From Candidatus Nomurabacteria bacterium (GTDB lineage: Bacteria > Patescibacteriota > Minisyncoccia > Phycocordibacterales > UBA9973): a DNA stretch of 64,000 bases. The DNA lies in contig JAIOPO010000001.1 in NCBI GenBank assembly GCA_021413905.1, positions 201,159-265,158 on the forward strand. Reading direction: 5' to 3'. Numbering within the stretch: position 1 is the stretch's first letter; each line of letters begins with the position of its first letter. Under the pieces are notes generated by a model. It did no database searches. It was not told the origin of the DNA and saw only the letters and a list, made by a program, of their open reading frames with translations. Position numbers and translations under genes: made by a program. Of this stretch, positions 39,211 through 64,000 are shown one piece after another.

Positions 39211-39460
39211 TTAATTATTTGCCATAAGCCATGCATTTAATATTTTACGAGTGTAAGGACCCAAAACACCAGTTCCTTTTTTTAGACCCTGAGGAATAAG
39301 AATTTCTTTTGCATGAGCTTCTTGGAATTTTATTAATTGTTGTTTTGTTTTTTTACCAAAGAAATTATTTTCTTTACCTTTAGAACCAACCCCATTAAGA
39401 GCAATAGTGAAACCGTTATTATTCAAGAAAATTTGAAGTAATTTTACGTCGTTATTTGTA
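39211..39460 (-). other. C-terminal peptidoglycan-binding (PG_binding_1-like) domain of the giant protein
   Basis: DVKLLQIFLNNNGFTIALNGVGSKGKENNFFGKKTKQQLIKFQEAHAKEILIPQGLKKGTGVLGPYTRKIL fits the PG_binding_1 pattern (V..LQ..L...G.....DG.FG..T..A...FQ.....DG..GP.T...L). A poly-Gly linker precedes it at 39605-39650. Confidence 0.6.
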
Positions 39461-51400: not shown

Positions 51401-54400
51401 TTATTACCAACAAAATAATAAGGATTATCATTTACATTTACTCCGTTACAATCATCATTGGGACCTTGATTAGAACAATAGACTTCTGGTGTTGAATCAT
51501 TATAAAAAGTATTAATTGTATTTAATGTTCCAACATAATCACCTACTATATTACCAATATACCCCGCACCAAAATTTGAAAATTGAACAGAAGCAAAAGA
51601 ATTTTGAATATTTATAATTCCTGTTCCTGGGCCAAACCCTTCCCCTTCATAACCGATCAAACCTCCAGCAGTTCCAGAACTAGAAAAACCAGTACCATTT
51701 AAATTTACTTTTGAATAAGAGTTAACAACACTTATTTCTGGATAATTATACCCAACAAGACCTCCGACAATAGCCCAACCTGAAATATTTGTATTTACAT
51801 ATGAATCTATAATCGTAAAAGGAGTATCGTTCGTATTAGAAAAACCAACCAAGCCTCCTGCAAAAAATCCATCAAACATATTTTGAGCAAGACCTGTAGA
51901 ATTAACACTTGAATTTTCTCCACCAAAAAAGTTTTCTCTGAAATCTATATCTACATGAGAACCAGTTGTGTCTAAAAAACCAATAAGTCCACCAGTATTT
52001 GAATTACCAGAGATGACACCATTTGAATAATTATACTTAAATTGATTTGTTAAATCGTAAGAACTATTGTCAAAAAGATAATAATACCCGACAAGACCTC
52101 CAACAGAATTAGAAGTACCTGTCACAGATCCTGCTGTGTAAGAATTATTATTAAATTGAAAATCTAAATTATTATTTCCAAAAATTTCAGCATCAATTTC
52201 TCCTGCAATACCTCCGATATACGAATCACCACTTATATCTCCGGTTACATTATTATTTAATATATAAAAATTAGTAGTATCATTATTGCTATTATTGTTA
52301 ACATAAGAATACCCTATCAAACCTCCAGTATACTGAGAACCTCCTAGAATATCATCATTTGATTCATTGTCATGAATAGTAGTAACTATTACACCAGAAC
52401 CACTATCATCATAAACATCAATCTCACCTAAAAGTCCACCGACAGAAAAAGCACCATTAGAACCATCGATTAATCCATTTTCTATGGTATTAGAAAAAAT
52501 CTCTATATTGATATTACCATTTCCTGTTGAATATCCTTCAACAAAACCTATCAAACCTCCAAGATAATAACTTGAACTAGAAAGTGTAACATCTCCAGTA
52601 ATTGTATTGCCATGAACATCTAAATTTCCAGCATCATAAACATCTGAATAACCAATCAATCCTCCAACTTGAGAACCATCAGCATTTACATCTCCTGAAA
52701 CATTTGAATTTAAAATATTTGATTCAATATCTGTGCTTAAATATCCGACAACGCCTCCAGTACAGTAACTACCATTTACTATTCCAGAAAAAGTCACATC
52801 ACTTATAGTGACATTTGATGCATAACCTGCAACACCTCCAATATTACTATTTCCATTAATTGTTCCGTTAAATTCACCGCCACTGATAGTAGTTCCATAT
52901 GCTACACCCACAAGTCCACCGATATTATTTCCAGAACCAGCTGAAACATCAACAGAAGAATATACATCTGTAATTGTCGCGCCATTAGCAATAGCAGCAA
53001 GAGCACCAATTGTCGAACCATTTATACTTTGAACATTTCCAGCAAGATGTAAATCTTGAATATTAGCAGTATCACTGAGTTCAGAAAAAAGACCGATATT
53101 TGGATCACCCTCACCGTCAAGATTTATAGTAATAGTATAACCATTTCCATCAAGACTTCCTGAAAAAACACCCGAATTTATCATCATTGAATTTCCTTCT
53201 CCTGCACAAGAAAGATTGCCGTCCAAAACAAAACTTTCATCTAAAAGATTATTTATATTTTCAAAATCACTACAACTAGAAATATGAATAACAGGACGAT
53301 CATTTACGGGACCTTCATCATTTAACACATTGTGTAATGTTGGATATTCATTACTAGCAGAATCCCAAATTGGTTCTGAACTAAAATCCCAATGTCCTAA
53401 AAAGGGAAAAACAGATGAAGTGTTTTTAAAATAATCCATTTCAGATCCAATAGAGTTTTTATTTTCACAAGTAGCCAAATCCCCCAAATAAGGATCTCCA
53501 GAATTCGTATTTCCACAAGCCGACTGTGTACTTCTTAAGGTATCCCAAAAAACATTAGAAAGCATAGAGCCAACACTGTCTGATGTTTGATTAATACCAA
53601 ATATTGCTCCATGATAACTACCAGAATTCACACTAGCAACACTAAAACTATTTTGTATAACTGCCCCTGATTGAATAACACCAACAAGACCTCCTGTATT
53701 CGTTTGTTCAGAAAATACTGTCCCTCTTGAATAACTATTTACAACACTAGATAAAGAAACAGTACCGGCAATTCCTCCGACGTTACCAAAATTAGAAATA
53801 ATATTTCCTATATTGTATGAATTTGTAATCTGAGAATTATTTCCCAAACTACCGACAATTCCTCCGACATGACTATCTCCAGTTATATTTGCCTTATTAA
53901 TAACCTGATCAATAATAGAATTATTGGAAAAACCGGTTAAACCTCCAAGACCGGATCCTATATTTTGAACAGAACCAGATATGCTCAATTTAGAAACTGT
54001 AGCATTATGTAAAAAAGAAAACAGACCGGCATTGTCTCCTTCATAGTTTATAGACACATCAATATTATGACCATTTCCATCAAAATTTCCCTGGAAACCA
54101 CCATACATCGATCCTGGATCTATGATTATATTATTATGTTCTCCTGCACATTCCAAATCTCTCATCAAAATAAAATAACTAGAAAGATGAGAATTAATAT
54201 GTTCAAACTGAGCACAAGAATTTATTTGATAAGGATTCCCGGAACTTCCATCACCATCTAAAAATTCAGCATTTGGATCATAATGAAAATTAAAATCTTC
54301 TGTTAGATTACTTCTGACGATAGTTACATATTGATCAGATAAATCATCTAAAAGTGTCCAAGTATTACCATCCATACTACCGTACAATTTCCAACTTATA

Positions 54401-55740
54401 GGATCTCTTCCTATTTCATCGTTTCCTGTTTTAAAACGATAACCATTAAATAAAATTGAATGACCAACACCAGTATCTATGACTACAGTAGAATTCCCCA
54501 ATTGAGGATCTCCTCCGTCATTATCAAAATTTTGATCCAACCATTTACTAGAAGAATCTACTCCGTCAATAATTTTCATTGCTCCTTCTGAATCATTTGG
54601 ATTATTACTACCACCTGGATTAGTAGCTGTAGTTCCTTCTGGCCAAACTGCGACTTCACCATTATACAAAGGAATAAATTCTTTCACTTGAACACAACAA
54701 ACAGCATCTCTTCTTTTTGTAATTTCCCATTTTACATAACGATAATTCGCATTAGTATTAGCTTTACTATATGTAAAATTTACGCTTGTTTCAGTTTGAT
54801 TAGTATTACCATCAATACCTTTTACATATAATGTATGTTCACCTGTTGATGGTTCTGGAATATCATTACCGCAAGAAATGCTAGAATATTCATCTGTATC
54901 AAATTTATAACTGCAAGTAACAGCTGTATCCCAAGAAATAGAAGGATTCCATACTGAAATAGTATCGGAAATCGGTGAATTTATCACAACACTCGGGGCT
55001 AAAGCAACCAATAAAGCCTGACTTTCCAAAGCTTGACTATTTGTACTCAAAGCACGATCATTCAAAATAGTATTAGCACTTGAATATCCAGAAGCAGAGA
55101 CAGTCACAAATGCATCATTATCATCCTCGCTCAAACCAATAGGACAAAGATAATCTCCTGGTGTTGATGATTCCACACAAACAGCCGGGCCAGCATTGAT
55201 ACTAGCACCAGATATTGGATTACTTGTATCAGAATCAGTTACTGTAATTTTATGAGAAAAAAGAAGGGCGTCCGAATTTGTAAAATTCGCAGTATGTGTT
55301 GAACTTGAAGTCCAAGTATCTAATGTGTCTGGATTATCAAAATTAACCAAAAAAAGATTATCCATTTCATGTGTGACATATCCATCGAGACTTACTCTCA
55401 CATCAACATAAGTCCCACTAATACAAGAAGCAGAAGCAGACAAGTAACTTGAAAAAGAAAAAGAGTTAATACTAATATTACCACTAGAAATAACACCGAT
55501 ATTCTGCCAAGTTCCACTATTACAACGAACATCCACTGAAGCATTATCTAAACTTGTGTTATCAAACTCTCTTTGTACAGTGACATACAAACCACCAACA
55601 GGAACAGCGTTGGCTATTTTTATACCGAGTATTGGAATAATAGGTGAAATAGGTGCGACAATAAAACTAAAAATAAACAAACTAAACAAAAAAGTTTTTG
55701 ATATCTTTTTTAATAACTTAAAAAAATGATGTGGTGACAT
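39211..55740 (-). CDS. Giant (5509 aa) multidomain cell-surface protein with N-terminal signal anchor and C-terminal peptidoglycan-binding domain
   Basis: A single uninterrupted ORF of 16,530 nt. The N-terminus is MSPHHFFKLLKKISKTFLFSLFIFSFIVAPI. Domains in order are a discoidin-like domain, seven GLUG-repeat modules (each opening with DPYQISSC.QL.NIN...Y.L..DIDC...GF.PIG...F.G.FDG.GY.I.NL), a LamG domain, Fn3-like domains, a 7-blade propeller, an Asp-box/BNR propeller, a Gly run (GGGGGGGGYGGY) and a PG_binding_1-like C-terminus. Confidence 0.9.
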   Translation of the reverse strand: MSPHHFFKLLKKISKTFLFSLFIFSFIVAPISPIIPILGIKIANAVPVGGLYVTVQREFDNTSLDNASVDVRCNSGTWQNIGVISSGNISINSFSFSSYLSASASCISGTYVDVRVSLDGYVTHEMDNLFLVNFDNPDTLDTWTSSSTHTANFTNSDALLFSHKITVTDSDTSNPISGASINAGPAVCVESSTPGDYLCPIGLSEDDNDAFVTVSASGYSSANTILNDRALSTNSQALESQALLVALAPSVVINSPISDTISVWNPSISWDTAVTCSYKFDTDEYSSISCGNDIPEPSTGEHTLYVKGIDGNTNQTETSVNFTYSKANTNANYRYVKWEITKRRDAVCCVQVKEFIPLYNGEVAVWPEGTTATNPGGSNNPNDSEGAMKIIDGVDSSSKWLDQNFDNDGGDPQLGNSTVVIDTGVGHSILFNGYRFKTGNDEIGRDPISWKLYGSMDGNTWTLLDDLSDQYVTIVRSNLTEDFNFHYDPNAEFLDGDGSSGNPYQINSCAQFEHINSHLSSYFILMRDLECAGEHNNIIIDPGSMYGGFQGNFDGNGHNIDVSINYEGDNAGLFSFLHNATVSKLSISGSVQNIGSGLGGLTGFSNNSIIDQVINKANITGDSHVGGIVGSLGNNSQITNSYNIGNIISNFGNVGGIAGTVSLSSVVNSYSRGTVFSEQTNTGGLVGVIQSGAVIQNSFSVASVNSGSYHGAIFGINQTSDSVGSMLSNVFWDTLRSTQSACGNTNSGDPYLGDLATCENKNSIGSEMDYFKNTSSVFPFLGHWDFSSEPIWDSASNEYPTLHNVLNDEGPVNDRPVIHISSCSDFENINNLLDESFVLDGNLSCAGEGNSMMINSGVFSGSLDGNGYTITINLDGEGDPNIGLFSELSDTANIQDLHLAGNVQSINGSTIGALAAIANGATITDVYSSVDVSAGSGNNIGGLVGVAYGTTISGGEFNGTINGNSNIGGVAGYASNVTISDVTFSGIVNGSYCTGGVVGYLSTDIESNILNSNVSGDVNADGSQVGGLIGYSDVYDAGNLDVHGNTITGDVTLSSSSYYLGGLIGFVEGYSTGNGNINIEIFSNTIENGLIDGSNGAFSVGGLLGEIDVYDDSGSGVIVTTIHDNESNDDILGGSQYTGGLIGYSYVNNNSNNDTTNFYILNNNVTGDISGDSYIGGIAGEIDAEIFGNNNLDFQFNNNSYTAGSVTGTSNSVGGLVGYYYLFDNSSYDLTNQFKYNYSNGVISGNSNTGGLIGFLDTTGSHVDIDFRENFFGGENSSVNSTGLAQNMFDGFFAGGLVGFSNTNDTPFTIIDSYVNTNISGWAIVGGLVGYNYPEISVVNSYSKVNLNGTGFSSSGTAGGLIGYEGEGFGPGTGIINIQNSFASVQFSNFGAGYIGNIVGDYVGTLNTINTFYNDSTPEVYCSNQGPNDDCNGVNVNDNPYYFVGNNANFPLNFFDVDVWSFVAGSFPTLINVSGDDIALFDGGSGTVEDPYQISSCIQLQNINQNQSANYILTDNIDCNSDTHEGGPLYNIGYGFTPIDQFSGIFDGDGYTINDLYINNSSSNNIGLFSYVQQGAIIKNVGLENVDITGADFTGGLAGENYLGKIYNVYVNGNVHGVDVVGGVVGSNNDYSNFIVNSYSGANVTGSSNVGGFVGQNVGQIMNSYATGNVSEIGGDNFTGGFVGYNEYDGVIKNSYATGNVSSEGFFTGGFVGYYASLDILNSFSSGNVDQGLNTDYVGGFAGSGDDYLTGLDYYDQVASGHNYCVGIFGDWAPSCVSVNDIQTYYSNNSVNSPLDKWDFSSAWSTNISGYPTLRQGNLFSGTGSGTDIDPYVVTSCSQFKEINNFALLDSSFLLDADLDCADDGTQIMVGNIIPFTGHFDGNGYSINIDIDNTDGTYHDVGLFVSLNQNALIENLTVTGDILSPYNVGGIVSEINNSAIQDSSSYVNITSTANDGWNPLIGGIAGYTVSSSLSNDNYHGNISVADSVWSVGGLVGYEDEDTTISDGSYSEGDISILSGANVGYAVGGLVGWATYAIIEDSYSNTNISSLSYSNNTGGLVGQSENSSIYRTYATGDIYSIGAYVGGLMGDVIDSEVYDSYSTGTVSCNDVCGGLIGVVANSNVFNSYSSSTIVGISSSFNSHISSFIGQALNASHIEGNFSVGSVTFWNGNEITNTPGVNDTYIGGIVGQENSNLGLNEIINNSYDQINTGVNQCIGDNTPGGQNGSSNSDCNPVNTIETPNENYFKNDNSNAPLNSFNNTNWVFTENYYPTLANLSSDDPNVYYTQGDGSPENPYQINSCTGLQNVNNDLNASYILTQNIDCSDTINWNSGQGFEPLGNDDYLFNGNFNGAGYKIINLFININSSLGVGLFGETNSSAVIENLGVENENITNASSYTGGLVGYNEGTIRNVYTTGRVTSEGTYTGGLVGVNDGLTTIDKSFSNVTVVGAVASGGLIGENHGTISDSYATGSVSGGQYVGGLTGINFYIISSSYATGSVFGNGSTHGGGLTGYLNGEITDSFAVGRVSNFSSLSGGLIGEYVNGALINNFYDQIRTEQSGCSQGSDISGCSAVNTIGNPDTNYFKNNNTNEPLASWDFNDTNIWDTSTSYPLLHGNTISGISFVNPTPENNSSQSSSVAEINMDSSSIGANHYAFTDIDNSLVAFWRFENNANDDTSSSNGIWHGTETYSTGKFGKAANFNGNSYISTTLPSTITGDFTFSSWVYLNNRYAGQSIFSDENGHLIQIGGGGQWQFDEYATFAPADIGAWTHLVAVENNGTETLYVNGEIAASGGASRNIGQTINIGRRTDGVYINGKMDDTLLFSRALNSNEIASLYNAHINQYDYTNEDFSNGSHSFTGYAVNTSGVKSSTEERSFTKASDFDGGDGSEGDPYQISSCPQLQLMNNDLSAHYILVDNIDCSDTLSWNANASEWVDGIVDGELIPDSYSEVTHTDIIVENNGYYGFEPVGNDSTPFLGTFDGDGYTINNLWIFRKDSDNNGVFGKTQNANIHDVNIENSNIVGAQNTGGLVGYMYGGTITDVNLTNNMIRTYLDYHGGGLVGMMEEGASINHIINNNGVVHGSGDIIGGLVGELDSASISNSSSSADVDGGASIGGVVGSANNGEITNTYASGGTVTSNRSEYLLMKTGYAAGGFVGYLYGSNISDSYSTENVNSTGDAAGGFAGVVNYSNLMNDYATGNVTGNQETNEYNTYNPNYVGGFVGAMYSGSNITMSYATGDVTTTGSYVGGFVGNLDGYSVVDNSFSLGSVNGDDYVGGFTGSISNLSLINKVYSKGLVTGNNTENTGGLVGYNSETGNIYNSFWDNENSNQSTSAGGTGEDTSTMKTESTFTDAGWNFDTLWDIDGFTNDGYPFISESASIFNGSGNESDPYQISSCSEFTSMNNSTNSSYILMNDLDCTSLGNGVVIGINREFSGNFDGNGHTITVDINAPSESNAGLFSVVGNGSKIQHLTVNGSVVGQNVVGMVVGANYGQILDVHSSGNVSGDSNVGGLVGFLYSYYVDASDSSANVSAISSNAGGLVGVNSGDISNSHATGDVSVSNTNSSHAGGLVGVNSGDISNSYATGDVTMGANSGYAGGLVGEIDSGDISNSYATGNVNIVDGSNIGGFAGHVQDASIEQSYSTGDVDGNGDGSNQLSYNVGGFVGSTYNATISNVYSKGNVSGNTNVGGLIGQLESNVNLNNAYSIGLVIGVEDYGGLIGLQTNINNTVTNSFWDLNTSNQINGNDGTSKTDAEMKNVDTFTNIESSGISNVWDFINNPVDDENNNDIWDISSMKNQGYPFFVWQSNIPIVETLVPSNTSDNSVNLNAQIVEAGNLEISERGFEWGLTDSYGESWSESSGPYSESIFSKTIYSLSANQTYHYRAFIVNNDGTTFGEDRTFIATNAKWQDVGDQDNFNNYEYNQSLKLNSQNVAYVAYVDSSNGYGVSVKKNNGSDWELVGEPNFSGTQVDYLSMQMYQDIPYVFYVEVNNEYKITVKRFVNDTWENVGDPRFNTGYAYELSSAISANGTPFVAFEDSNYGYKGTVMSFDGNNWNIIGNAGFTDGQIYRNQIATDSNNIPYIIYSDSSHSYSATVKKLVNGDWSTLGNPYFTSNYAWHVSMVLDSNNIPYVTYSDCNQNCSISVMTLDNDTWVNVGDPEFSGTGGVSYNKILVDSNNVIYVGFEDCSNACAATVMKWNGESWIYVGNAGFSTGSIEHFSLALDSNNIPYVAYHDNSLQNKTIVKFLPVISYEYYESDETHGAVSPSNPGTLVSYNGYLKTLTEDQRYLVTDISQSDSGYDSQIFKIHQNLNEINTPTFTINWKGHGAVPDEKNVIVSIWNFNTSEWEQISTEHCAEDCDISGSKTGSDYYDNNDNVWIWVKAENSVSTDLELSLTNTQTLPISWITNNESTTELAYDTISHLNDGWDSYASHTTDDNLVTSHETSPSLIDTTEKSWREVASSYDGQRLFGVVNGGDIWASNNSGLTWNNISASLGVKNWRSVSSNSNGTIIFATVDSGNIYRGVTNNGGATWVWTNLSSVSTDYPGTQDWLKVVSSADGYSISAIIDDYSYIYTAQSNDSGLTWIWTENTSTGLQNWRSIAMDYTGDKIFAVSSYDVENNANGSVWSGVNDGGWTWTDLSQISTGYPNNMSWGDSYISTNENGSKFVVAKEGGYIYTVKSGETWDWTENQDLGTPYWYSVNMSPDGSKIILGENCGQIGVGIYNSQSGIWSWSRKGPNQCFGIGAASNYNGSKLIMSVGSGALWTSNDGGENWLNVTGNAYYYRVRSCDAEGVCKTSPEQTILYGISSSCPFIFTWNGEEYKFIIDASSSGTMGQGLDREQWKSTPFYKAPTYPNPESFVKIPSGYMAPTTNNNGTYYDIKTTFELNEVNYYDQANLEVIDHSSNVNIFPDARQNKQIHTIAKNAQAPIWIKDQNGKDVKSLIAYDDNNYYHTRKEDTSSYLTMKLSNDTVTPANLKIVVKKGKEGLFQGNKQSDALQYKNSSGVFVNVPENMNPSIGKRSGQSVTNRILSNSYGVDTKVIDLSGLTIKDNEIRFVMTNRQIQTDIDWIAVDTSPDEEISKSVLSPYYANLHFRGISNMIPLNANDAHMGDLEIPDYADLISKKGKGNTLTGMATKYGDVKDLLANVDNKFVITTQGDEISLRYEVPVQANGTERDFIYDTWDYHKSFHNALGDTIFPLPFNEMTNYPYHENLEHYPTDTEHNAYQAEYNTREINWGTDESVATPGIHHSLNTDFVNVSVSDSNDSVENPIVTTSSASSVSRSQGTLNGTIVSTGGELASVRGFYWGSTTNYGNTILQNIGSYDEGSFSTVISNLSCGTTYHFKAYAINSSGTGVSDTDRVFSTSACLVASGGGGGGGGYGGYSSTQDTTQKDVKNLEEKINNISSDFKIIKTGLPDGFQFKKNLKQSNTNNDVKLLQIFLNNNGFTIALNGVGSKGKENNFFGKKTKQQLIKFQEAHAKEILIPQGLKKGTGVLGPYTRKILNAWLMANN
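41420..42400 (-). other. BNR/Asp-box beta-propeller domain of the giant protein
   Basis: Five Asp-box motifs are present: SNNSGLTW, TNNGGATW, SNDSGLTW, VNDGGWTW and SNDGGENW (S.D.G.TW). Confidence 0.65.
42960..44030 (-). other. Seven-blade beta-propeller-like repeat domain of the giant protein
   Basis: There are seven repeats of about 48 aa, W..VG...FS.G......LA.DSNN.PYVAY.D......TVMK, running from WQDVGDQDNF to NKTIVKFL. Confidence 0.5.
44960..45150 (-). repeat. Near-perfect 90-bp in-frame tandem duplication inside the giant gene
   Basis: agaatttgaaatatcaccggaattaacaccgaccaaacctccggcat recurs at 45001 and 45091. It encodes two consecutive copies of HAGGLVGVNSGDISNS(H/Y)ATGDV, with a third diverged copy adjacent. 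Confidence 0.75.
47240..47770 (-). other. LamG/concanavalin-A-like lectin domain of the giant protein
   Basis: The segment runs from LVAFWRFENNANDDTSSSNGIWHGT...GDFTFSSWVYLN to LYVNGE and ends DDTLLFSRALNSNEIASLYN, a classic Laminin-G_3 pattern. Confidence 0.7.
54300..54750 (-). other. Discoidin (F5/8 type C)-like carbohydrate-binding domain of the giant protein
   Basis: The segment runs from NYRYVKWEITKRRDAVCCVQVKEFIP to ISWKLYGSMDGNTWTLLDD, a galactose-binding-like fold pattern. Confidence 0.5.
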
Positions 55741-55751
55741 ATAAGATAAAA

Positions 55752-56270
55752 TTATTTTTTAGTTTTTATCTTTTTAAGAGAACCATTTTTTTTACTATTA
55801 AAAAAATTGTTTGCATTTTTCATTTCAATAATATTTTTAACTTTTGATACAATATATGCATTATTGTTTTCTTTGGAAAATACAGTGACATTGTCTCCTA
55901 CCTTAAAATCTGAAATTGAAGGATTTTGGATACCCTTAACTAAAAACTCTGTTTTGTCATTTAATGAGAAAGTACTAACTAGTAGATCTTTATTCTTTAT
56001 ATTTTTTTTATTATTTGTATTTTTCTTATTTTCTTTTTTATTTTTATTAATTTTTGAAATATGAGATTCCGTGACAGTGATAGTACCATTGTCTATACTG
56101 GAAATAACTCCTCTGAAAATATTACTTTTAGGTATTGTAGTTGAAATATTTTTTATTTTGGATAAATTTTTAGAAACTGGAGCATTATCAACTGCAAAAA
56201 CATTACCAACAAAGAGACTAAAGAAAAAAACTGACAACAGACTTACGATATAAATATATTTTTTGTACAT
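55752..56270 (-). CDS. Secreted Lys/Asn-rich small protein encoded immediately upstream of the giant gene
   Basis: The start was taken at ATG 56270 (MYKKYIYIVSLLSVFFFSLFVGNVFA, a signal peptide). There is a low-complexity K/N stretch (NKNKKENKKNTNNKKNIKNK). It is on the same strand and ends 11 nt before the giant ORF start. Confidence 0.4.
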   Translation of the reverse strand: MYKKYIYIVSLLSVFFFSLFVGNVFAVDNAPVSKNLSKIKNISTTIPKSNIFRGVISSIDNGTITVTESHISKINKNKKENKKNTNNKKNIKNKDLLVSTFSLNDKTEFLVKGIQNPSISDFKVGDNVTVFSKENNNAYIVSKVKNIIEMKNANNFFNSKKNGSLKKIKTKK

Positions 56271-56361
56271 TTTTTGAAAAATTAAAATAATAAAAGAATA
56301 ATGTAGATTAATTATATCAAAACAAAATATTAAACACAAACAAAAAGAGTTTTTTTGACAA

Positions 56362-56928
56362 TTACCCTAAAACTTCATTTATTATTTCTTTCAGTCCCTT
56401 TTTTTCTTTTGAGGAGAAAGGCAAGAGTTTGTGTTCGCCGACTGTTTTTTTAATTTCTTTGATGCTGTTGTGATATTGTGATTGATTCAATTTGTCTATT
56501 TTAGACAACGCAATTACGAAGTCTTTATGCTGATTCACCAGCTCTTGATACATTGCGATGTCTTTATCCGTCATCCCCACAGAAGCATCCACGATAAACA
56601 CCACTTTCTTTTGGTCAAAATTTGTATTAAATAAATATGAATCTATCAAATCATAAATCTTTTCTTTGCCTCGTCCGGAAGCTTGCGCGTATCCATAGCC
56701 CGGCAAATCCACGAAATATAGATTGCTATTTACAAGGAAAATATTTATCTCTTGCGTGCTCCCTGGCAAAGAACTGGTGCGAGATACCGTGCTATGCGTC
56801 AAAGCATTTATGAGGCTGGACTTGCCCACATTGGAGCGCCCAATAAAAGCCACTTGTGGCACGCCGTCCGTCAATATTGCGTCATCCTCCACAATCCCCT
56901 TTAAAAATTTTACAGAATTTATCTTCAT
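56362..56928 (-). CDS. engB: Ribosome biogenesis GTPase EngB/YsxC/YihA
   Basis: The G1 motif is AFIGRSNVGKSSLINALT and the product (188 aa) has a typical EngB layout. Confidence 0.85.
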   Translation of the reverse strand: MKINSVKFLKGIVEDDAILTDGVPQVAFIGRSNVGKSSLINALTHSTVSRTSSLPGSTQEINIFLVNSNLYFVDLPGYGYAQASGRGKEKIYDLIDSYLFNTNFDQKKVVFIVDASVGMTDKDIAMYQELVNQHKDFVIALSKIDKLNQSQYHNSIKEIKKTVGEHKLLPFSSKEKKGLKEIINEVLG

Positions 56929-56964
56929 AATTTTATATTAGCAAATTAAAATTTTTTAAGCGAC

Positions 56965-57513
56965 TTAATACAATTGTATAGCTTTTCTTTTTTGCTTGTG
57001 GTCAGAGATTTGTTGTGCTACGAGTGCCCAAAACCTTGCTGAATGATTCATCTCTTTTAAATGGCACAGCTCGTGCACGATGATATAGTCTGCGAGTTCC
57101 GCGGGCAAGAAAACTATTTTATAATTAAAATTCAAATTGCCTTTCCCTGAACAGCTTCCCCATCGGGATTTTTGATTTCGTATGTAAACTTTCTTAAAAT
57201 TAAATTTGTAAAAATTATTAAAATGCTCCAGTCGCCCGCTCGCAAGCTCGCGGGCTCTCTCCTTATTCTCACTAAAATCCTTTATCGAACAATGCGCCAA
57301 GATTTTCTGCGGTTTAGCTTTCTGCTCCGCTATTTTACTCTGCACCCAATCCCATTTCTCCCGCATTATTTTCTCCACACTACCCAAACTCACCCGCGCA
57401 CCTTTCGAGACATATACCGCCCCATCCGCCCCCACACTTATCAAAACCTTCCTCCCCCGCACCGTATTTCGCACCCGATAATTAAGTCCGTTTAGATGTT
57501 TGATGGTTGGCAT
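56965..57513 (-). CDS. YgjP-like (DUF45/M48-type) zinc metallopeptidase, last gene of the hsd operon
   Basis: The sequence is WGSCSGKGNLNFNYKIVFLP...IIVHELCHLKEMNHSARFW, with the HExxH motif of YgjP/WLM-like proteins. The product is 182 aa. Confidence 0.75.
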   Translation of the reverse strand: MPTIKHLNGLNYRVRNTVRGRKVLISVGADGAVYVSKGARVSLGSVEKIMREKWDWVQSKIAEQKAKPQKILAHCSIKDFSENKERARELASGRLEHFNNFYKFNFKKVYIRNQKSRWGSCSGKGNLNFNYKIVFLPAELADYIIVHELCHLKEMNHSARFWALVAQQISDHKQKRKAIQLY

Positions 57514-57521
57514 GACTTTAT

Positions 57522-58706
57522 CTACACCAATTCCCCATTAAAAGCTTCACGGAGATATGATTTTTCTAATTTTTTAAAATCTTCAAGTTGTGATTTTTGT
57601 AATTCTACCATTTGACGAATTTTTTCTGAAAGTGTATCCAATCGTTCAACAATTTTCTTCTGTTCTGAGAATGGTGGAATTATGAGTTTTATGTCATCTA
57701 GCATGTATTTAGTTATTTGATTTATCATTGGACCCCCACCAGCACTAAACTGATCAAAAAATAACTTAGACTTAAAGAAATAATAAAGGTAAGCATTATT
57801 TTCACTTCTAATAATTGTCATGAACGTACCGAATGTCATTTTCTCAGTAAGATTTTTAATCATTGCAGTTTTCCCAATTAGTCTTTTACTTCCATTTCTA
57901 CTACACATTAAAATATCTCCGTCTTTCACAAAGAGTTCTTCTTTTATTTTCTTTTCAACTCTAACCAAACTAGATAAATCAATTAAGTCCTTTTGCACAT
58001 TGGAGGATCTTAAAACTATAGTTCCTTTTGAACCAACATCACTAGGAGAGTAAGTTAAACCTATAGAATATTTTGCAATATCTTTTAAAAATACTTCCTC
58101 CCAGCCTTTTTCTTTACCCTCTTCAAAAATTTCACGGAGGGTTTGGGAGAGGATTTTTTCTGTTTCAGCGATTGATTGTTCGCGCAAACTTTTCACCTCC
58201 CGAATCTTTGCAAATTTCTCATCCAAAATCTCCACAATTTTCTTTTGAATTTCAAGTGGTGGAAGTGGGATTTCAATTTCTTTTAATCGTGAACCTGAAA
58301 CCTCTAAAAATGTTGAGCCACTACCTAAAGAATTTAATAACTCTGTATTTGAAAATAAAAAATAATATAAATATTTATTAAATATCTCTGAACCACAAAT
58401 AAAACTACGGCAACCCTGATTTGTTGCCATTGGTACTGTATTTATAACGACATAACCAATCGGTGCGCGAGATGATAATATAACGGACCCAATAGGTAAT
58501 TTTTGAGCTGAAGAATTTTTGAGTCCTGATTCAGAAATTTTTCGTTCAGTTTCAGAAATCTGAAAACTATCAAGTCGTCCAAGATCTTTTGGTGTTACCC
58601 AACACAAATCACCACCCCAATATTTTGAAATACCAGTTTTTGGAGTACCTCCGCCAACGATTTCACAAATCTCACTTAGTTTTTTTATTTGCCAGTTAGT
58701 TTTCAT
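57522..58706 (-). CDS. hsdS: Type I restriction-modification specificity subunit HsdS
   Basis: There are two target-recognition domains with conserved central and C-terminal coiled repeats. The N-terminus is WQIKKLSEICEIVGGGTPKTGISKYWGGDLCWVTPKDL. The product is 394 aa. Confidence 0.85.
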   Translation of the reverse strand: MKTNWQIKKLSEICEIVGGGTPKTGISKYWGGDLCWVTPKDLGRLDSFQISETERKISESGLKNSSAQKLPIGSVILSSRAPIGYVVINTVPMATNQGCRSFICGSEIFNKYLYYFLFSNTELLNSLGSGSTFLEVSGSRLKEIEIPLPPLEIQKKIVEILDEKFAKIREVKSLREQSIAETEKILSQTLREIFEEGKEKGWEEVFLKDIAKYSIGLTYSPSDVGSKGTIVLRSSNVQKDLIDLSSLVRVEKKIKEELFVKDGDILMCSRNGSKRLIGKTAMIKNLTEKMTFGTFMTIIRSENNAYLYYFFKSKLFFDQFSAGGGPMINQITKYMLDDIKLIIPPFSEQKKIVERLDTLSEKIRQMVELQKSQLEDFKKLEKSYLREAFNGELV

Positions 58707-59677
58707 ATTTTTGTGTAATGTTTATCCATTTCCTTATATACTTCTGAAGAGAAAAAGGCTCTTTTAATACCACTCTTTTTTACAGGATCTAAATAACTGA
58801 ATTTACAAAATACATCTTTGCTTTTTATTTCCTCAATAATTTTATTAAATACACTATTTTGCTTAAAATCACTATATCTATTTTTTAAAGAAGAAACTAA
58901 ATCTTTTTTATTAATTGTATATTTAGTTTTAAATAGACTTTCTTCACTAATAAAAACTGATGCTCCTTTTTTTCCAACCCTGACTGTATTTATTCCAGAT
59001 GACCCTTTTTCAAACTTTGTAACTAAATTTAATGAAAAATTATGTGGGGAGTTTTCAGTATAAGGATTTTTTCTCTCTTTTAATTTAAAATATTTTAGTA
59101 GATTTTTCTCTTGAACTGTTTGTTTGTTCACAGAAAAACTTTCAATTTCGTATGGATGAAAAAAAGAGATTGGCATTAGATAAAAATTATATTTGCTCAT
59201 ATCGTAACTAAACCAATCAGAAGTAAATTCTAGGTAACTTTTTAAAGAAGCTGTGCATATTTCTTGTATTTTTTTTGATAAATATTTATCACTATTATAG
59301 AAATGTATACTATTATCTCTAATTTCAATTATTGCTTCTAAATTATCTTTTACTACTTTTGGTAACTTTAAAAGTTCTATTAGTTTAAATATCTCCAAAG
59401 TATACGGGTTACCGCTCCTATTTTCCTTTGGATAAAACCTTTTAACTGGATCACCTTTCTTCGTCTTTGTTTTGGACTGAACTTGAATACTTGAAACTTT
59501 ATTTTTGTTGTCTTTTAAAACTTTTGCTTTAAGTAATAGTTCCCAAGCATTAACTAGTAATATAGAAAATATTTCTTCTCTATACGCAAAATCTGGCTTA
59601 TTATAAATCTCTATTGCTGAAATAATAGAAGCAACTGATTTGTCAAGTAATTTACTTTGTAAATTTTGTTTTGCCAT
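58703..59677 (-). CDS. HEPN-motif protein embedded in the type I RM operon (candidate RNase/abortive-infection effector)
   Basis: An Rx4HxY motif (IEIRDNSIHFY, Arg120/His125, nt 59302-59328) follows the N-terminal helical region SAIEIYNKPDFAYREEIFSILLVNAWELLLKA. Its start overlaps the hsdS gene's 5' end by 4 nt (ATGA) and its stop is 2 nt from the TIR gene start. The family assignment (DUF3644/DUF4145-like) is from memory, not searched. Confidence 0.5.
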   Translation of the reverse strand: MAKQNLQSKLLDKSVASIISAIEIYNKPDFAYREEIFSILLVNAWELLLKAKVLKDNKNKVSSIQVQSKTKTKKGDPVKRFYPKENRSGNPYTLEIFKLIELLKLPKVVKDNLEAIIEIRDNSIHFYNSDKYLSKKIQEICTASLKSYLEFTSDWFSYDMSKYNFYLMPISFFHPYEIESFSVNKQTVQEKNLLKYFKLKERKNPYTENSPHNFSLNLVTKFEKGSSGINTVRVGKKGASVFISEESLFKTKYTINKKDLVSSLKNRYSDFKQNSVFNKIIEEIKSKDVFCKFSYLDPVKKSGIKRAFFSSEVYKEMDKHYTKI

Positions 59678-59679
59678 GA

Positions 59680-60753
59680 TTATCTTTTAGATTCTAAAAT
59701 TGTTTTTAATTCTAAAATTATCTCATTTATATTATCAGATTTTTTTGCAATTCGATCTGCAAAAGTAAGACTATATTGAGAAATATCCTCACGAGTAATA
59801 TTATGCCAAATTGGTAAAATAACATTCTTACCATTTTTCTCTTTAGAAAAAAGTCCATTTAATTCGTATTCAGTCCATTTTTTCTTTGAAAGAAATGCTT
59901 TCGAAAAAATAACGATTCCGTAGCGGGAATTCTTAAGACCATTATCAATGGTAGGTCTTAAATCATCTCCCCAACCAACAACAAAAGAATCGTACCAAAC
60001 AGAAAAACCTGCATCTTTTAAAGATTGAGCTAAAATATTTACAAAATCTTTATCTTCACTTGCGTGACAAATAAAGACATCAAACTCAGTTAACTTTTTT
60101 TCAGTAAGATTAGAAGACTTTTCAATTACTTGAGAGTTGTTTTTAAATTCTTCTTTTTTAGGAATTCCTAACTGTTTAAAAAAATCTTCATCTTTTGATA
60201 TTTCAATATTTGTTTTTTGTTCTGCCTCCGAGATAGCTTTATCTATATTACTATTATATTGTTCAATTTGCCGATTTAAATACTCAGATTGACTTAATAA
60301 AAATTTGATAACTTTTTCTTTCTCTTGAGTAATAGGGCCCGTTTCATCGGAAAATTTTATCACCTCAAAAACAATATCATTATCAATGATATCAATCTCT
60401 TCAGTTTGAAGAATTCTTGGAGAGGGCGCGCACTTCAAAAGACTCTTATCACCTGAGAATGGTAAATGAAATCTTATAACATCTTTTTTGTAATGTTCTC
60501 CTCGCTCAACCCAGTATGATTGAGGAAAATATTCAGCTGGAATTTCAGCGGATTCAATTGTAAGAGTTATTTGTTCTGGATAGAAAGTTAAGGGTAAGAT
60601 TTTATATTTATCTGAAAGTTTAGAAATATCAGCGCTATTTCCACTTTTTATGATTAAACCAACTTCATCTTGTATTTTTTTTATCTGAGCAGCTAATGTC
60701 GATGAAAAATCATATTCATTAAATGCTCTAAATCCTTGAGTAGTAATTAACAT
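59680..60753 (-). CDS. TIR-domain protein (N-terminal uncharacterised domain plus C-terminal TIR) embedded in the type I RM operon
   Basis: The C-terminal roughly 135 aa (nt 59680-60090) are EFDVFICHASEDKDFV...GFSVWYD...RYGIVIFSKAFLSKKKWTEYELNGL...ILPIWHNITRED. These match the bacterial TIR hallmarks (the DVFISH box, a conserved Glu, and the W.K.EL motif). The N-terminal 220 aa have no recognisable family. Confidence 0.75.
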   Translation of the reverse strand: MLITTQGFRAFNEYDFSSTLAAQIKKIQDEVGLIIKSGNSADISKLSDKYKILPLTFYPEQITLTIESAEIPAEYFPQSYWVERGEHYKKDVIRFHLPFSGDKSLLKCAPSPRILQTEEIDIIDNDIVFEVIKFSDETGPITQEKEKVIKFLLSQSEYLNRQIEQYNSNIDKAISEAEQKTNIEISKDEDFFKQLGIPKKEEFKNNSQVIEKSSNLTEKKLTEFDVFICHASEDKDFVNILAQSLKDAGFSVWYDSFVVGWGDDLRPTIDNGLKNSRYGIVIFSKAFLSKKKWTEYELNGLFSKEKNGKNVILPIWHNITREDISQYSLTFADRIAKKSDNINEIILELKTILESKR

Positions 60754-60759
60754 AATTTA

Positions 60760-60933
60760 TATATTCTTTAAAATCTTTTTAATCTCCTCTTCCTTCCCTA
60801 AAATCCTCTCGACCTTATTTTTTATCTTCGGTTTCTTTAAATCAACCTGAAAAATCTGTCCGGATTTTTCAGGTTTTGTTTTTCTGTATTCAAGAAAAGA
60901 TATTTTATAGAACGGATTTATAATTTTTGCCAT
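60760..60933 (-). pseudogene. Remnant of an HsdM C-terminus (57-codon ORF) downstream of rhuM
   Basis: It encodes ...KVERILGKEEEIKKILKNI*, matching the true HsdM C-terminus LVERILGKEEEIKRIISNL. It contains a 36-bp repeat identical at 35 of 36 positions to the hsdM 3' end. Confidence 0.5.
60779..60814. repeat. 36-bp direct repeat, copy A (matches the hsdM 3' end)
   Basis: ttaatctcctcttccttccctaaaatcctctcgacc differs at one position from copy B at 62018-62052. Together the two copies bracket rhuM. Confidence 0.8.
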
Positions 60934-60944
60934 AAATAATTTAA

Positions 60945-61967
60945 TTATTCCTCTTTATTTTTATCTAAAATCTTTTTGACTTCTTTTTCAAAATCAGACT
61001 CTATTTTTTGATATTTATTAAATTCTTTATATTCATCTAGGGCTTTTTCTTTTGCTTGTTCTGCAGAAATACGTCCTTTGCCGTCTAGAATCTTGTACTC
61101 ATTGAAAGTTAAAAACTTATTTACACTCTCTGCAAATTCAGCCATAGTAAATGTTTCCTTTCGTTCAATAATACCTTCAATGTAATCAAAAAAACTGCTC
61201 ACGCTACGCTCGAGACTTTTGATTTGATCTTCTTGTAAATAATTTTTTGCAATTGTGACATCGGATTGCAATATCCTGCCGGGAGAATTTTTCCAAGTTG
61301 TAAGGTTCATATTTGGCTGAGTTGCATCAGCTTTTGTATAAATAATTTCTGCCGCAGTTTGCCCTGTAATAGCATAATGGAATTTATTTTGCACCATTGC
61401 ATAAAAATCTTTTGCTTGTTGTGTGTCCTTTTCATAATCAATGCTACATTCAGCAAAAATATCTGTTATCTGAAGCCAAATGCGTCGCTCGCTGGCACGA
61501 ATAGAACGTACACGCTCCAAAAGTTCACGAAAATAATCGACACCAAAGAATTTTTTACCGTTCTTTAAACGTTCATCGTCTAAAGCAAAACCTTTAATAA
61601 TAAAATCACGCAATATTTGAGTTGCCCAAATACGAAAATCTGTTGCTCTTTTTGAGTTAACACGATACCCAACAGCAATAACTACGTCAAGATTATAATG
61701 CATCGTATCATACTCTTTACCATCAGTAGCAGTTATTCGGAAATTCCTAATAACTGAATCTTCTTTTAATTCAAGGGTTTCAAAGATATTTTTTAAATGT
61801 TCATTTATAGTTGGTATTGACACATCAAAAAGCTCTGCCATTATTTTTTGAGTAAGCCATACCATTTCATCTTCAACGCGGACTTCTACTTGCGGTTTCC
61901 CGGATTCTGCGGTGAAAATCAAAAATTGAGTAGTTGCATTTTTTTGTTTTAACTTGTTATCTTTCAT
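60945..61967 (-). CDS. rhuM: RhuM-family protein (virulence-associated RhuM/Fic-DOC-like), inserted between hsdM and downstream genes
   Basis: NATTQFLIFTAESGKPQVEVRVEDEMVWLTQKIMAELFDVSIPTINEHLKNIF is a typical RhuM N-terminus. The product is 340 aa. This family is a frequent passenger between hsdM and hsdS. Confidence 0.7.
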   Translation of the reverse strand: MKDNKLKQKNATTQFLIFTAESGKPQVEVRVEDEMVWLTQKIMAELFDVSIPTINEHLKNIFETLELKEDSVIRNFRITATDGKEYDTMHYNLDVVIAVGYRVNSKRATDFRIWATQILRDFIIKGFALDDERLKNGKKFFGVDYFRELLERVRSIRASERRIWLQITDIFAECSIDYEKDTQQAKDFYAMVQNKFHYAITGQTAAEIIYTKADATQPNMNLTTWKNSPGRILQSDVTIAKNYLQEDQIKSLERSVSSFFDYIEGIIERKETFTMAEFAESVNKFLTFNEYKILDGKGRISAEQAKEKALDEYKEFNKYQKIESDFEKEVKKILDKNKEE

Positions 61968-61971
61968 ATAA

Positions 61972-63414
61972 TCATTTTAGCATTAAAATCTTATATTTTA
62001 AATTACTAATAATTCTCTTAATCTCCTCTTCCTTTCCTAAAATCCTCTCGACCAATTCTTTCGACCCGAATTCTTCTTCTACCTCAGCACCCTTTGGATT
62101 CTTGAAATCCAAATTAAAATTCTTTGCACGAATATCCGCGATTGAAACCTTCCATGCATTATCACTCGCTTTTTTATTTTTAAACCATTTTATTACTGGT
62201 TCAAACTCCGCATCGGTGATACCTCTATTCTTCGTATATTGTTTCAACCCCGCAGGCAATGGCATCTGATAATACCAAACTTCTTTTGTTGGTTGGCCTT
62301 TTGTAAAAAATACAAGATTCGTATTTACCCCAGCATACGGCTGAAAAACACCTGCTGGCAAGCGGACAATGGTATGTACATTACATTCCTCAAGAAGCTT
62401 TTCTTTAATACGAGATTTTACACCTTCGCCAAAAAGAGAACCATCAGGTAAAACTATTCCACATTTTCCACCAGGCTTCAAAAGACTCATAAATAATACA
62501 AGGAAAAGATCTGCAGTTTCTTTTGTGCGAAAATCCGCAGGAAAATTTGCCTCTGTGCCGTCTTTGACACTTCCACCGAAAGGAGGATTGGCAATAATAA
62601 TATCTACACGATCTTTTGGACCATAATCACGAAGTGGAGTAGAAAGCATATCACCACGACGAATTTGCTGAGGAATTTCTACGCCGTGCAAAATCATATT
62701 GGTAATAGCAAGCAAATGCGGAAGCGGTTTTAATTCTACTCCACGAATTTGTTGTTGAACTTTAGTTTCATCTTTTTTTGTTTTTACTTCTCCACTACTT
62801 CTGACATACTCAAGTGCACTAATAAGGAATCCTCCAGTACCACATGCAGGGTCAAGAATACTTTCACCTAATTTTGGATCAAGAGTACTGACAATAAAAT
62901 TCGTAAGTGGTCTCGGTGTATAGTACTCACCAGCATTACCTGCATTTTGAAGTCCTTTCAATAAATGTTCATAAATTTCGTTGAAATGATGACGATCGTC
63001 TTTACTATTGAAATCTATTTCATTTATTTTATTTACCACTTGACGAATGAGAGTACCAGACTTCATGTAGTTGTAAGTATCTTCAAAAACTTCTTTAACA
63101 ATAAGACCTCTAGGATCATCATTTTCATTGAATTTCAAACTCTTGAGTTGTTTAAATAGCTTATTGTTTATAAAATCAAGCATTTCGTCACCAGTAATCC
63201 CCTCGGCATTACTAGCCCAATTACGCCAGCGAAGAACTTCAGGAATCGGAGAATGATACTTGAGATCAAGAAGTTCATACTCTTTTTCTTTATCATCAAA
63301 AATCTTCAAAAATAAAAGCCACACGAGCTGTGAAAGTCGCTGTGCGTCGCCGTCTACCCCAGCGTCTTTACGCATGATATCTTGAATATTTTTTATGATT
63401 GATTGAATGGCCAT
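61972..63414 (-). CDS. hsdM: Type I restriction-modification DNA methyltransferase subunit HsdM (N6-adenine)
   Basis: The HsdM N-domain is QRLSQLVWLLFLKIFDD, the AdoMet motif I is LDPACGTGGFL and the catalytic motif IV is IIANPPFGG. The product is 480 aa. Confidence 0.92.
   Translation of the reverse strand: MAIQSIIKNIQDIMRKDAGVDGDAQRLSQLVWLLFLKIFDDKEKEYELLDLKYHSPIPEVLRWRNWASNAEGITGDEMLDFINNKLFKQLKSLKFNENDDPRGLIVKEVFEDTYNYMKSGTLIRQVVNKINEIDFNSKDDRHHFNEIYEHLLKGLQNAGNAGEYYTPRPLTNFIVSTLDPKLGESILDPACGTGGFLISALEYVRSSGEVKTKKDETKVQQQIRGVELKPLPHLLAITNMILHGVEIPQQIRRGDMLSTPLRDYGPKDRVDIIIANPPFGGSVKDGTEANFPADFRTKETADLFLVLFMSLLKPGGKCGIVLPDGSLFGEGVKSRIKEKLLEECNVHTIVRLPAGVFQPYAGVNTNLVFFTKGQPTKEVWYYQMPLPAGLKQYTKNRGITDAEFEPVIKWFKNKKASDNAWKVSIADIRAKNFNLDFKNPKGAEVEEEFGSKELVERILGKEEEIKRIISNLKYKILMLK
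62018..62052. repeat. 36-bp direct repeat, copy B (native hsdM 3' end)
   Basis: ttaatctcctcttcctttcctaaaatcctctcgacc lies in the last codons of hsdM. Confidence 0.8.
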
Positions 63415-63418
63415 AAAT

Positions 63419-64000
63419 TTATACGTACAAAGCTAACTGTATTTGATTAATAATTTCTAAATAATTTTCTCGTCCACCAAAAATGTCATTCACAATTTGT
63501 ATTGGGGTTCCAAAATTTGTAAATGGAGAAACTTGCAAGTCACCAATGTCGTCAATAGCTGTGATACCAGTATCTGCATATTTTTCTAAAAGCGCATCAA
63601 TAACTTCACGTGCCTTGCCTTCATATTTTGCAAAATAATTATTTTTCTTTACATTATTTGCACGTTCTGTTCGAGTTAACGGTTTCTTTCCGTAAGCAAC
63701 ATGACAAATTAAATCAAAAGGATCTAATTCTTTCCCTATTTCTTTTGCTAACTCTTCAAAAAATACACCTCTACTTTTTAACTCTTCAATAATAGCTTCC
63801 TTTTTATCACTCTGTTTCCATGCTTGTAGAAATGAATCGAGTGACGCATACTCACTCAAAATATTTTTCTTAGAATAGTCTTTTAAGGATTCCGTAATGA
63901 GCTTACCGTCTTCACCGATATATTGAACTCGCTCGTTAATAACTTTTATATCCACACCATTTATATATAGTTTTGTTCTAGGTTCGCCAATAGTAATAGG
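63419..64000 (-). CDS. hsdR: Type I restriction enzyme HsdR, C-terminal part only (N-terminus beyond window end)
   Basis: The frame is open to nt 64000. ...[42 protein letters not shown] matches the conserved EcoEI-R C-terminal domain. The stop is 4 nt before the hsdM start. Confidence 0.7.
   Translation of the reverse strand, partial: [193 protein letters not shown]

Follow-up and report, generated by a model that had tools for sequence, protein, structure and literature searches.

In 2013, Anantharaman et al. placed the family DUF3644 in the HEPN superfamily under the name EC042_2821 family (PMC3710099). Its members were reported in fusion with winged helix-turn-helix (wHTH), restriction endonuclease (REase) or Zn-ribbon domains and were found in restriction-modification (R-M) operons. 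The same study described the Ex3[KR] motif in helix 2 and the Rx4-6H motif as the signatures of catalytically competent HEPN domains (PMC3710099). Two lines of later work come close to the locus described here, both from Payne et al. 2024 (bioRxiv 10.1101/2024.01.29.577857). The PDC families were derived from genes found inside BREX, DISARM or type I R-M systems, and the DUF3644 protein HEC-08, an Hma-embedded candidate, was found to provide phage defence, which is abolished by mutation of the motif histidine. Here we analyse a DUF3644 gene, encoding a protein of 324 amino acids (aa), that occupies part of the hsdM-hsdS gap in a type I R-M operon of Candidatus Nomurabacteria (Patescibacteria). 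The operon is part of a stretch of 64,000 nucleotides (nt) (GenBank assembly GCA_021413905.1, contig JAIOPO010000001.1, forward-strand positions 201,159 to 265,158), which is called the window below and supplies all coordinates. The gene is probably a single-gene, self-contained HEPN-type defence module, carried as a mobile cassette in the hsdM-hsdS gap.

The family identity was obtained from two model collections. Pfam DUF3644 (PF12358) matched aa 9-199 over profile positions 1-178 of 183 with an E-value (E) of 9e-49 and 166 bits (gathering score 27.6), and it matched 38 of 38 aligned homologues as well. The PADLOC model PDLC04954 of PDC-S19 spans the whole protein (E 1.6e-105, positions 3-327 of 330), and PDC-S19 was the only PADLOC family that matched. 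PDC families are defined as lone genes inside BREX, DISARM or type I R-M systems, and the position between hsdM and hsdS agrees with this. An NCBI entry from a 274-kb contig, 'DUF3644 domain-containing protein [Candidatus Nomurabacteria bacterium]', has the same sequence (100% identity). PHROGs gave a weak match to a family of unknown function and no NCBIfam model matched the protein; a Pfam scan of the 38 homologues (E ≤ 10) revealed neither a second family that recurred nor weak matches to other HEPN families. The HEPN assignment of the initial annotation, which was made from the DNA alone, is upheld by the Pfam score and by the placement of DUF3644 in PMC3710099. As judged from sequence, it is supported that the protein belongs to the HEPN-type family DUF3644. 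Evidently, it is a new and uncharacterised member of a family that is known and has been catalogued, and not a new PrrC-like system.

The peptide IEIRDNSIHFY (aa 117-127, nt 59297-59329) contains the sole Rx4-6H match of the protein, R120 to H125. The initial annotation had built on this peptide and had placed it a few nucleotides off (59302-59328). About 0.1 Rx4H is expected by chance in a protein of the same composition; therefore, the motif by itself is weak evidence and becomes meaningful only if it is conserved. In 38 full-length homologues with 43-87% identity, R120, H125, E46 and K50 never vary, and conservation of D121 reaches at least 90%. An exhaustive HMMER search over 1.84 billion cluster representatives matched 1273 clusters (at 50% identity) at E ≤ 1e-3; the number falls to 590 at E ≤ 1e-10 and to 204 at E ≤ 1e-30. 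The alignments mostly cover aa ~8-323, so the family keeps its two-domain architecture. Of the top 150 representatives (28-66% identity), 149 have R120, 149 have H125 and 149 have D or N at position 121, while E46 and K50 are present in all 146 that could be aligned there. When the comparison was confined to 112 sequences at 28-50% identity, N26, E46, K50, R120 and H125 were the only invariant columns, among them the residues of the Rx4H motif and of the Ex3K motif, here E46-L-L-L-K50 in helix 2. The conservation of R120 and H125 is far beyond chance, and the residues on which the HEPN call had been staked are retained (38/38, 149/150 and 112/112). The signature had been written as Rx4HxY, and the tyrosine did not stand: it occurs in 13 of 79 sequences and in 31 of 151 of a second set, and the conserved pattern around the motif is E-I-R-D-N-x-x-H-F-x-N. 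Motif counts in our 80 genome loci are partly circular, as these loci were retrieved with patterns including the motif, and unbiased homologue sets were used instead. Seven longer homologues of 404-444 aa (P0243, P0246, P0247, P0262, P0265, P0286 and P0291) carry an N-terminal extension of ~90-125 aa before the HEPN domain, which may be the wHTH mentioned by Anantharaman et al.

The AlphaFold2 model of the protein has a mean predicted local distance difference test score (pLDDT) of 79.4, with the core HEPN helices mostly above 88. Four helices (H1 6-26, H2 33-56, H3 107-125, H4 131-156) form the modelled bundle, an extra helix follows at 186-203, and a 50-residue insert (aa 57-106) separates H2 from H3. 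R120 to H125 end helix 3, the same placement as described in PMC3710099, and in the model lie inside the four-helix bundle, the other point on which the initial annotation was to stand or fall. Its description of the protein as largely helical holds for the N-terminal ~200 aa, while the C-terminal 80 aa are alpha/beta in the model. In a Foldseek search of the PDB with the N-terminal domain, the top 13 matches were all HepT/SO_3166 HEPN toxins, though weak (E 0.19-1.6). The C-terminal domain was modelled alone and has the topology H-S-H-H-S-S; most of its top PDB matches are winged-helix proteins (forkhead, PadR/LmrR, MarR, TFIIE, RTP and RQC; E 0.4-2). Its net charge over the homologues is +6.2 ± 2.6, positive in 97% of the 112. 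Such a basic, winged-helix-like domain agrees with a role in binding nucleic acids and with the family's reported wHTH fusions. Only two cysteines are present in the protein (C141 and C291), and they form no clusters.

Several observations weigh against this reading of the protein and are collected here. The HepT/SO_3166 structural matches are not statistically significant (E ≥ 0.19, template modelling score, TM, ≤ 0.43), and a search of PDB sequences with the family-profile hidden Markov model (HMM) returned nothing at E ≤ 10. Alignment by hhalign with the HEPN homologues of Ishtar (bioRxiv 10.64898/2026.07.06.735840) puts the Rx4H motifs in register at a non-significant E of 0.8, so that HEPN homology gained no independent proof from it. 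Model quality is poor in the linker (aa 220-244), and the winged-helix assignment of the modelled C-terminal domain is built on many weak matches. Finally, the PDC systems including PDC-S19 were presented as untested candidates (Payne et al., bioRxiv 10.1101/2024.01.29.577857).

The neighbourhoods of the homologues reveal a gene that moves. The closest ones (80-89% identity) are also found between hsdM and hsdS, and their upstream neighbours differ from locus to locus: a Bro-N gene, a 105-aa WYL-like open reading frame (ORF), a DUF4145 HEPN gene, or none. The HsdM proteins of these operons are only 27-68% identical to that of the window. Such similar cassettes in operons with so divergent HsdM mean that the cassette moved between unrelated R-M operons. 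More distant homologues (61-63% identity) follow an HpaII-type type II system or lie beside a ParB-methyltransferase gene and a SIR2 gene. Over 78 species-level loci, R-M genes were found within four genes in at least 34 and were adjacent in 27. They belong to type I, type III or type IIG/ISP systems, and the DUF3644 gene stands before or after hsdM, hsdS or hsdR. Some homologues are away from any recognised R-M genes, and full-length copies occur on three plasmids; neither of the two that were inspected has adjacent R-M genes. Embedding in R-M loci is recurrent and non-exclusive.

The same loci yielded further observations on the gene's company. In L083 (6313-7975), and also in L084 and L085, a DUF4145 gene precedes an 87%-identical DUF3644 homologue, so that two HEPN-family genes stand in tandem between hsdM and hsdS. 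A DUF488 gene paired with an unannotated ~270-aa gene was seen beside homologues in L005, L010, L013, L015, L024 and L073; the pair could form a further embedded cassette or act as a partner. Directly downstream of the homologue in L008, L011, L014, L016, L027 and L044 there is an ORF of ~88 aa without Pfam match, which overlaps the 3′ end of the homologue in L016, the one locus checked, and has no counterpart in the window. Proteins similar to the N-terminal HEPN domain only (aa 4-172, ~30% identity) are encoded in 40 prophage or satellite records from Streptococcus, Staphylococcus and Listeria (e.g., MK448886 and MK448326), and in ten listed records the match lies ~2 kb from one element end.

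The features of the locus are collected in Table 1. The ORF, its strand and the TIR gene 2 nt upstream were found as first annotated: the ATG is at 59675-59677 and the TIR-gene stop TAA at 59680-59682. The 4-nt overlap with hsdS is also present; the overlapping part is the 3′ end of the gene and not its start as had been written, since its TGA (58703-58705) shares the ATGA with the hsdS ATG (58704-58706).

Table 1. Features of the type I R-M operon and of the DUF3644 protein in the window.
Feature	Position	Strand	Basis and remarks
hsdS, type I R-M specificity subunit	57522..58706	-	Pfam Methylase_S E 5e-52
Stop/start overlap ATGA, DUF3644 gene / hsdS	58703..58706	-	
DUF3644 / PDC-S19 protein gene	58703..59677	-	324 aa; HEPN domain and winged-helix-like C-terminal domain; ORF check, Pfam, PADLOC
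C-terminal alpha/beta domain, aa 245-324, basic, winged-helix-like	58706..58945	-	pLDDT 86-91; Foldseek; charge
HEPN domain, aa 1-203	59069..59677	-	AlphaFold2 model, Foldseek
Predicted catalytic R120-D-N-S-I-H125 (Rx4H)	59303..59320	-	C-terminal end of helix 3; conservation
E46-x3-K50, second HEPN signature, helix 2	59528..59542	-	Invariant in all aligned homologues
TIR-domain gene, PDC-S66, ThsB-like TIR	59680..60753	-	Pfam TIR_2 E 1e-18; PDLC05062 E 4e-60
RhuM-family gene, PDC-S05	60945..61967	-	Pfam Virulence_RhuM E 1.5e-103; PDLC04868 E 6.5e-148
hsdM, type I R-M methyltransferase	61972..63414	-	Pfam N6_Mtase E 9.5e-71, HsdM_N
hsdR 3′ part	63419..64000	-	Pfam EcoEI_R_C E 1.5e-35; frame open to window edge

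On the minus strand the genes follow in the order hsdR, hsdM, RhuM, a 190-nt spacer, the TIR gene, the DUF3644 gene, hsdS and a YgjP-like peptidase gene. The hsdM-hsdS gap thus holds three different single-gene PADLOC candidates, namely PDC-S05 (RhuM), PDC-S66 (TIR) and PDC-S19. The DUF3644 gene (25.2% GC) and the TIR gene (28.9%) have the lowest GC content of the operon, compared with 36.5% in hsdM and 32.2% in hsdS. No terminator-like site was found from the TIR gene through the DUF3644 gene to the start of hsdS. The promoter scan was uninformative in this AT-rich DNA (40 sites vs 33 ± 6 expected), and an Rfam scan of window positions 56000-64000 found no RNA family. Co-transcription of the operon explains the tight junctions, possibly together with translational coupling required by hsdS, which has no obvious Shine-Dalgarno sequence; the junctions do not point to a dedicated complex with HsdS.

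Three side observations belong to the operon and its surroundings. The rhuM-TIR spacer (60754-60944, 25.7% GC) contains a hairpin with a perfect 14-bp stem (AACCTGAAAAATC...GATTTTTCAGGTT) at 60844-60875. Its T-run is on the plus strand, antisense to the operon, and the hairpin may mark where a cassette ends or act as a terminator, either partial or in antisense. The YgjP-like (DUF45) metallopeptidase gene after hsdS (56965-57513, minus strand) has relatives of the same family beside R-M genes in L009, L049 and L068. An ORF of 5509 aa (39211-55740, minus strand), for a repeat-rich secreted or surface protein, takes up a quarter of the window.

The ATGA overlap recurs where DUF3644 homologues precede hsdS, in L082, L083, L090 and L009. 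In L093 a TIR homologue stands alone between hsdM and hsdS and has the same 4-nt ATGA overlap with hsdS. This means that the overlap is generic and not specific to the DUF3644 gene. The 5′ end of hsdS itself (ATGAAAACTAACTGGCAAA, encoding MKTNWQ) is near-identical in the window (58680-58742), L082, L083, L090 and L093. It spans operons with HsdM proteins 27-68% identical and always overlaps the stop codon of the preceding cassette; it could be a recombination junction for cassette exchange.

We therefore favour a DUF3644 cassette that would have been inserted in the hsdM-hsdS gap beside two independent cassettes, RhuM and TIR. By analogy with the HEPN literature, the protein would dimerise and act as a metal-independent RNase leaving 2′,3′-cyclic phosphate ends. 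It would stay inactive until infection or entry of foreign DNA, with the C-terminal domain as a putative nucleic-acid-binding sensor or targeting module. RNA cleavage might then lead to growth arrest or to loss of the transcripts of the invader, backing up the co-transcribed R-M system. On this analogy the protein is presumably an RNase, forming a second defence layer co-transcribed with type I R-M. Little of this is new: the family has been known as HEPN since 2013, PADLOC already lists it as candidate PDC-S19, and the gene is a fairly ordinary defence cassette. The locus is a clean example of 'guilt-by-embedding', with three independent single-gene defence candidates in succession within a single hsdM-hsdS gap, in a genome of the Patescibacteria. 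It also gives clear evidence that a HEPN cassette hops between unrelated R-M operons with the stop/start overlap with hsdS kept. Moreover, the subfamily with a HEPN domain and a basic winged-helix-like domain comprises ~200 clusters at 50% identity (E ≤ 1e-30) and is a candidate defence system.

The initial annotation had invoked the PrrC paradigm. In such a model the type I R-M complex would bind the HEPN protein and keep it inactive, translational coupling to HsdS would set its amount, and inhibition of the R-M enzyme by a phage would free it to act as a tRNA anticodon nuclease. The place between hsdM and hsdS with a 2-nt gap on one side and a 4-nt overlap on the other, the repeated ATGA junction at four loci and the lack of an obvious Shine-Dalgarno sequence before hsdS speak for such a model. 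RhuM or Fic/Doc genes are also found at PrrC/RloC loci (PMC3710099), and the window operon has RhuM and L090 has Fic. Nevertheless, an ABC-ATPase/AAA_13 domain was not found by Pfam or NCBIfam, and PADLOC returned PDC-S19 only. PrrC itself is embedded almost exclusively in type I R-M, whereas homologues of the present protein (36-63% identity) lie in type II, III and IIG/ISP loci, at variable type I positions, on plasmids and in loci outside R-M. HsdM proteins only 27-36% identical around near-identical cassettes (80-89% identity) speak against a co-evolved protein-protein interface, and latency by association with the R-M enzyme is thereby indirectly disfavoured. The stoichiometric co-expression with HsdS that had been read into the overlap is not supported, given the unrelated TIR gene of L093, which overlaps hsdS identically, and the varying positions of the homologues. 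Nothing found points to physical masking by the R-M complex. Taken together, these results make a PrrC-like role unlikely.

The basic, winged-helix-like C-terminal domain and the position within an R-M operon, directly before hsdS, would also suit a non-catalytic regulator or addiction element. In that case the winged-helix domain would bind DNA, and the protein would regulate how strongly the R-M operon is expressed or how stable it is, as a C-protein or a locus-stabilising toxin does; the role would not be one in defence. However, the HEPN catalytic residues are strictly invariant over 28-66% identity, which is unexpected for a pure DNA-binding regulator. Many DUF3644 homologues are not beside any R-M gene, and in the related protein HEC-08 defence depends on the motif histidine. 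We regard a regulatory role as quite improbable. A HEPN-winged-helix protein wired to its neighbours, either activated by a product of the adjacent TIR protein or restrained by the type I R-M complex with no need of the ATPase domain used by PrrC, is a distinctly unlikely case. If true, RhuM, TIR, HEPN and R-M would act as layers of a single defence unit that regulate one another, in a Patescibacteria cell with a small genome.

A two-gene system in the manner of Thoeris or of Csm6 in type III CRISPR is the last alternative: the TIR protein would make a nucleotide signal on infection, which the C-terminal domain of the HEPN protein would sense, switching on the RNase. The TIR gene stops 2 nt before the DUF3644 gene, its TIR domain resembles ThsB (PDLC00417, E 5.6e-31), and the two genes share the lowest GC content of the operon. 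The conserved co-occurrence expected of such a pair was not seen. A phmmer search with the window TIR protein, followed by one with an HMM built from 120 TIR homologues, revealed no conserved TIR neighbour at DUF3644 loci; with the HMM, a TIR ORF was found at 1 of 92 loci, ~5 kb away and not adjacent. The closest DUF3644 homologues have other upstream genes or none, and no DUF3644 gene is present at the three TIR homologue loci examined (~55-59% identity). PADLOC lists the TIR and DUF3644 proteins both as single-gene candidates, and the C-terminal domain of the HEPN protein resembles a winged helix, not a CARF, SAVED or SLOG sensor. One TIR homologue does have a Ymh (HEPN-family) gene two genes downstream, in L096 (5001-7917), where a 227-aa unknown gene and a DUF559/Vsr-like gene come first and the Ymh gene follows; this TIR-plus-HEPN neighbourhood differs from that of the window. 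A Thoeris-like signalling pair is thus very improbable, and it was rejected on the single, non-adjacent co-occurrence.

The TIR protein consists of two parts, an N-terminal ~200 aa matching PDC-S54 and a C-terminal TIR domain matching PDC-S66 and ThsB. Patescibacteria supply most of its full-length homologues (45-73% identity), which stand alone in type I R-M operons or beside EcoRI-methylase/GmrSD genes. The TIR gene is an independent embedded cassette.

The self-contained HEPN cassette can now be set against the described systems. With Ishtar it shares a single gene, an N-terminal HEPN domain, a small C-terminal alpha/beta domain and a location near defence genes, while Ishtar proteins have 170-260 aa and an RNxxEH motif (bioRxiv 10.64898/2026.07.06.735840). 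Comparison of our 38-sequence and 112-sequence profiles with 18 Ishtar homologues by hhalign gave probabilities of 0.15% and 0.05%, i.e., no detectable homology, and none of the DUF3644-family hallmarks YNKP, NAWE and RDNAIH appears in the Ishtar homologue table (Table S3); membership was dismissed. HepT/SO_3166 toxins (PDB 5YEP and 6M6U) provide the best N-terminal structural matches, weak as they are (E ≥ 0.19), with the same Rx4H placement, and they differ by the 50-residue H2-H3 insert and the extra C-terminal domain of the window protein. A HEPN-MNT toxin-antitoxin pair was excluded, as Pfam detected no nucleotidyltransferase domain in the operon proteins and none was seen beside the homologues. 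PrrC and RloC likewise are HEPN-type Rx4-6H nucleases encoded in type I R-M operons with RhuM or Fic genes near. Their ABC-ATPase is N-terminal, while the window protein has its HEPN domain there and no ABC-ATPase, and DUF3644 is not limited to type I R-M; on both counts the protein was not assigned to them.

HEC-08 and the window protein both have an N-terminal DUF3644 HEPN domain, are embedded in another defence system and find their best PDB match in SO_3166/HepT. HEC-08 ends in zinc-ribbon-like domains, whereas the window protein has two cysteines and a C-terminus with winged-helix matches; no HEC-08 model was among its PADLOC matches, and it was not counted as HEC-08. With PDC-S19 no difference was found, the match being full-length and the gene a single one in a type I R-M operon. 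Nor does any essential difference separate the protein from the DUF3644/EC042_2821 family. The name-giving protein of that family carries a C-terminal REase domain in place of the winged-helix-like one, and the family as a whole has in common with the window protein the HMM match over aa 9-199, the Rx4H and Ex3K motifs, the wHTH-type fusion and the residence in R-M operons.

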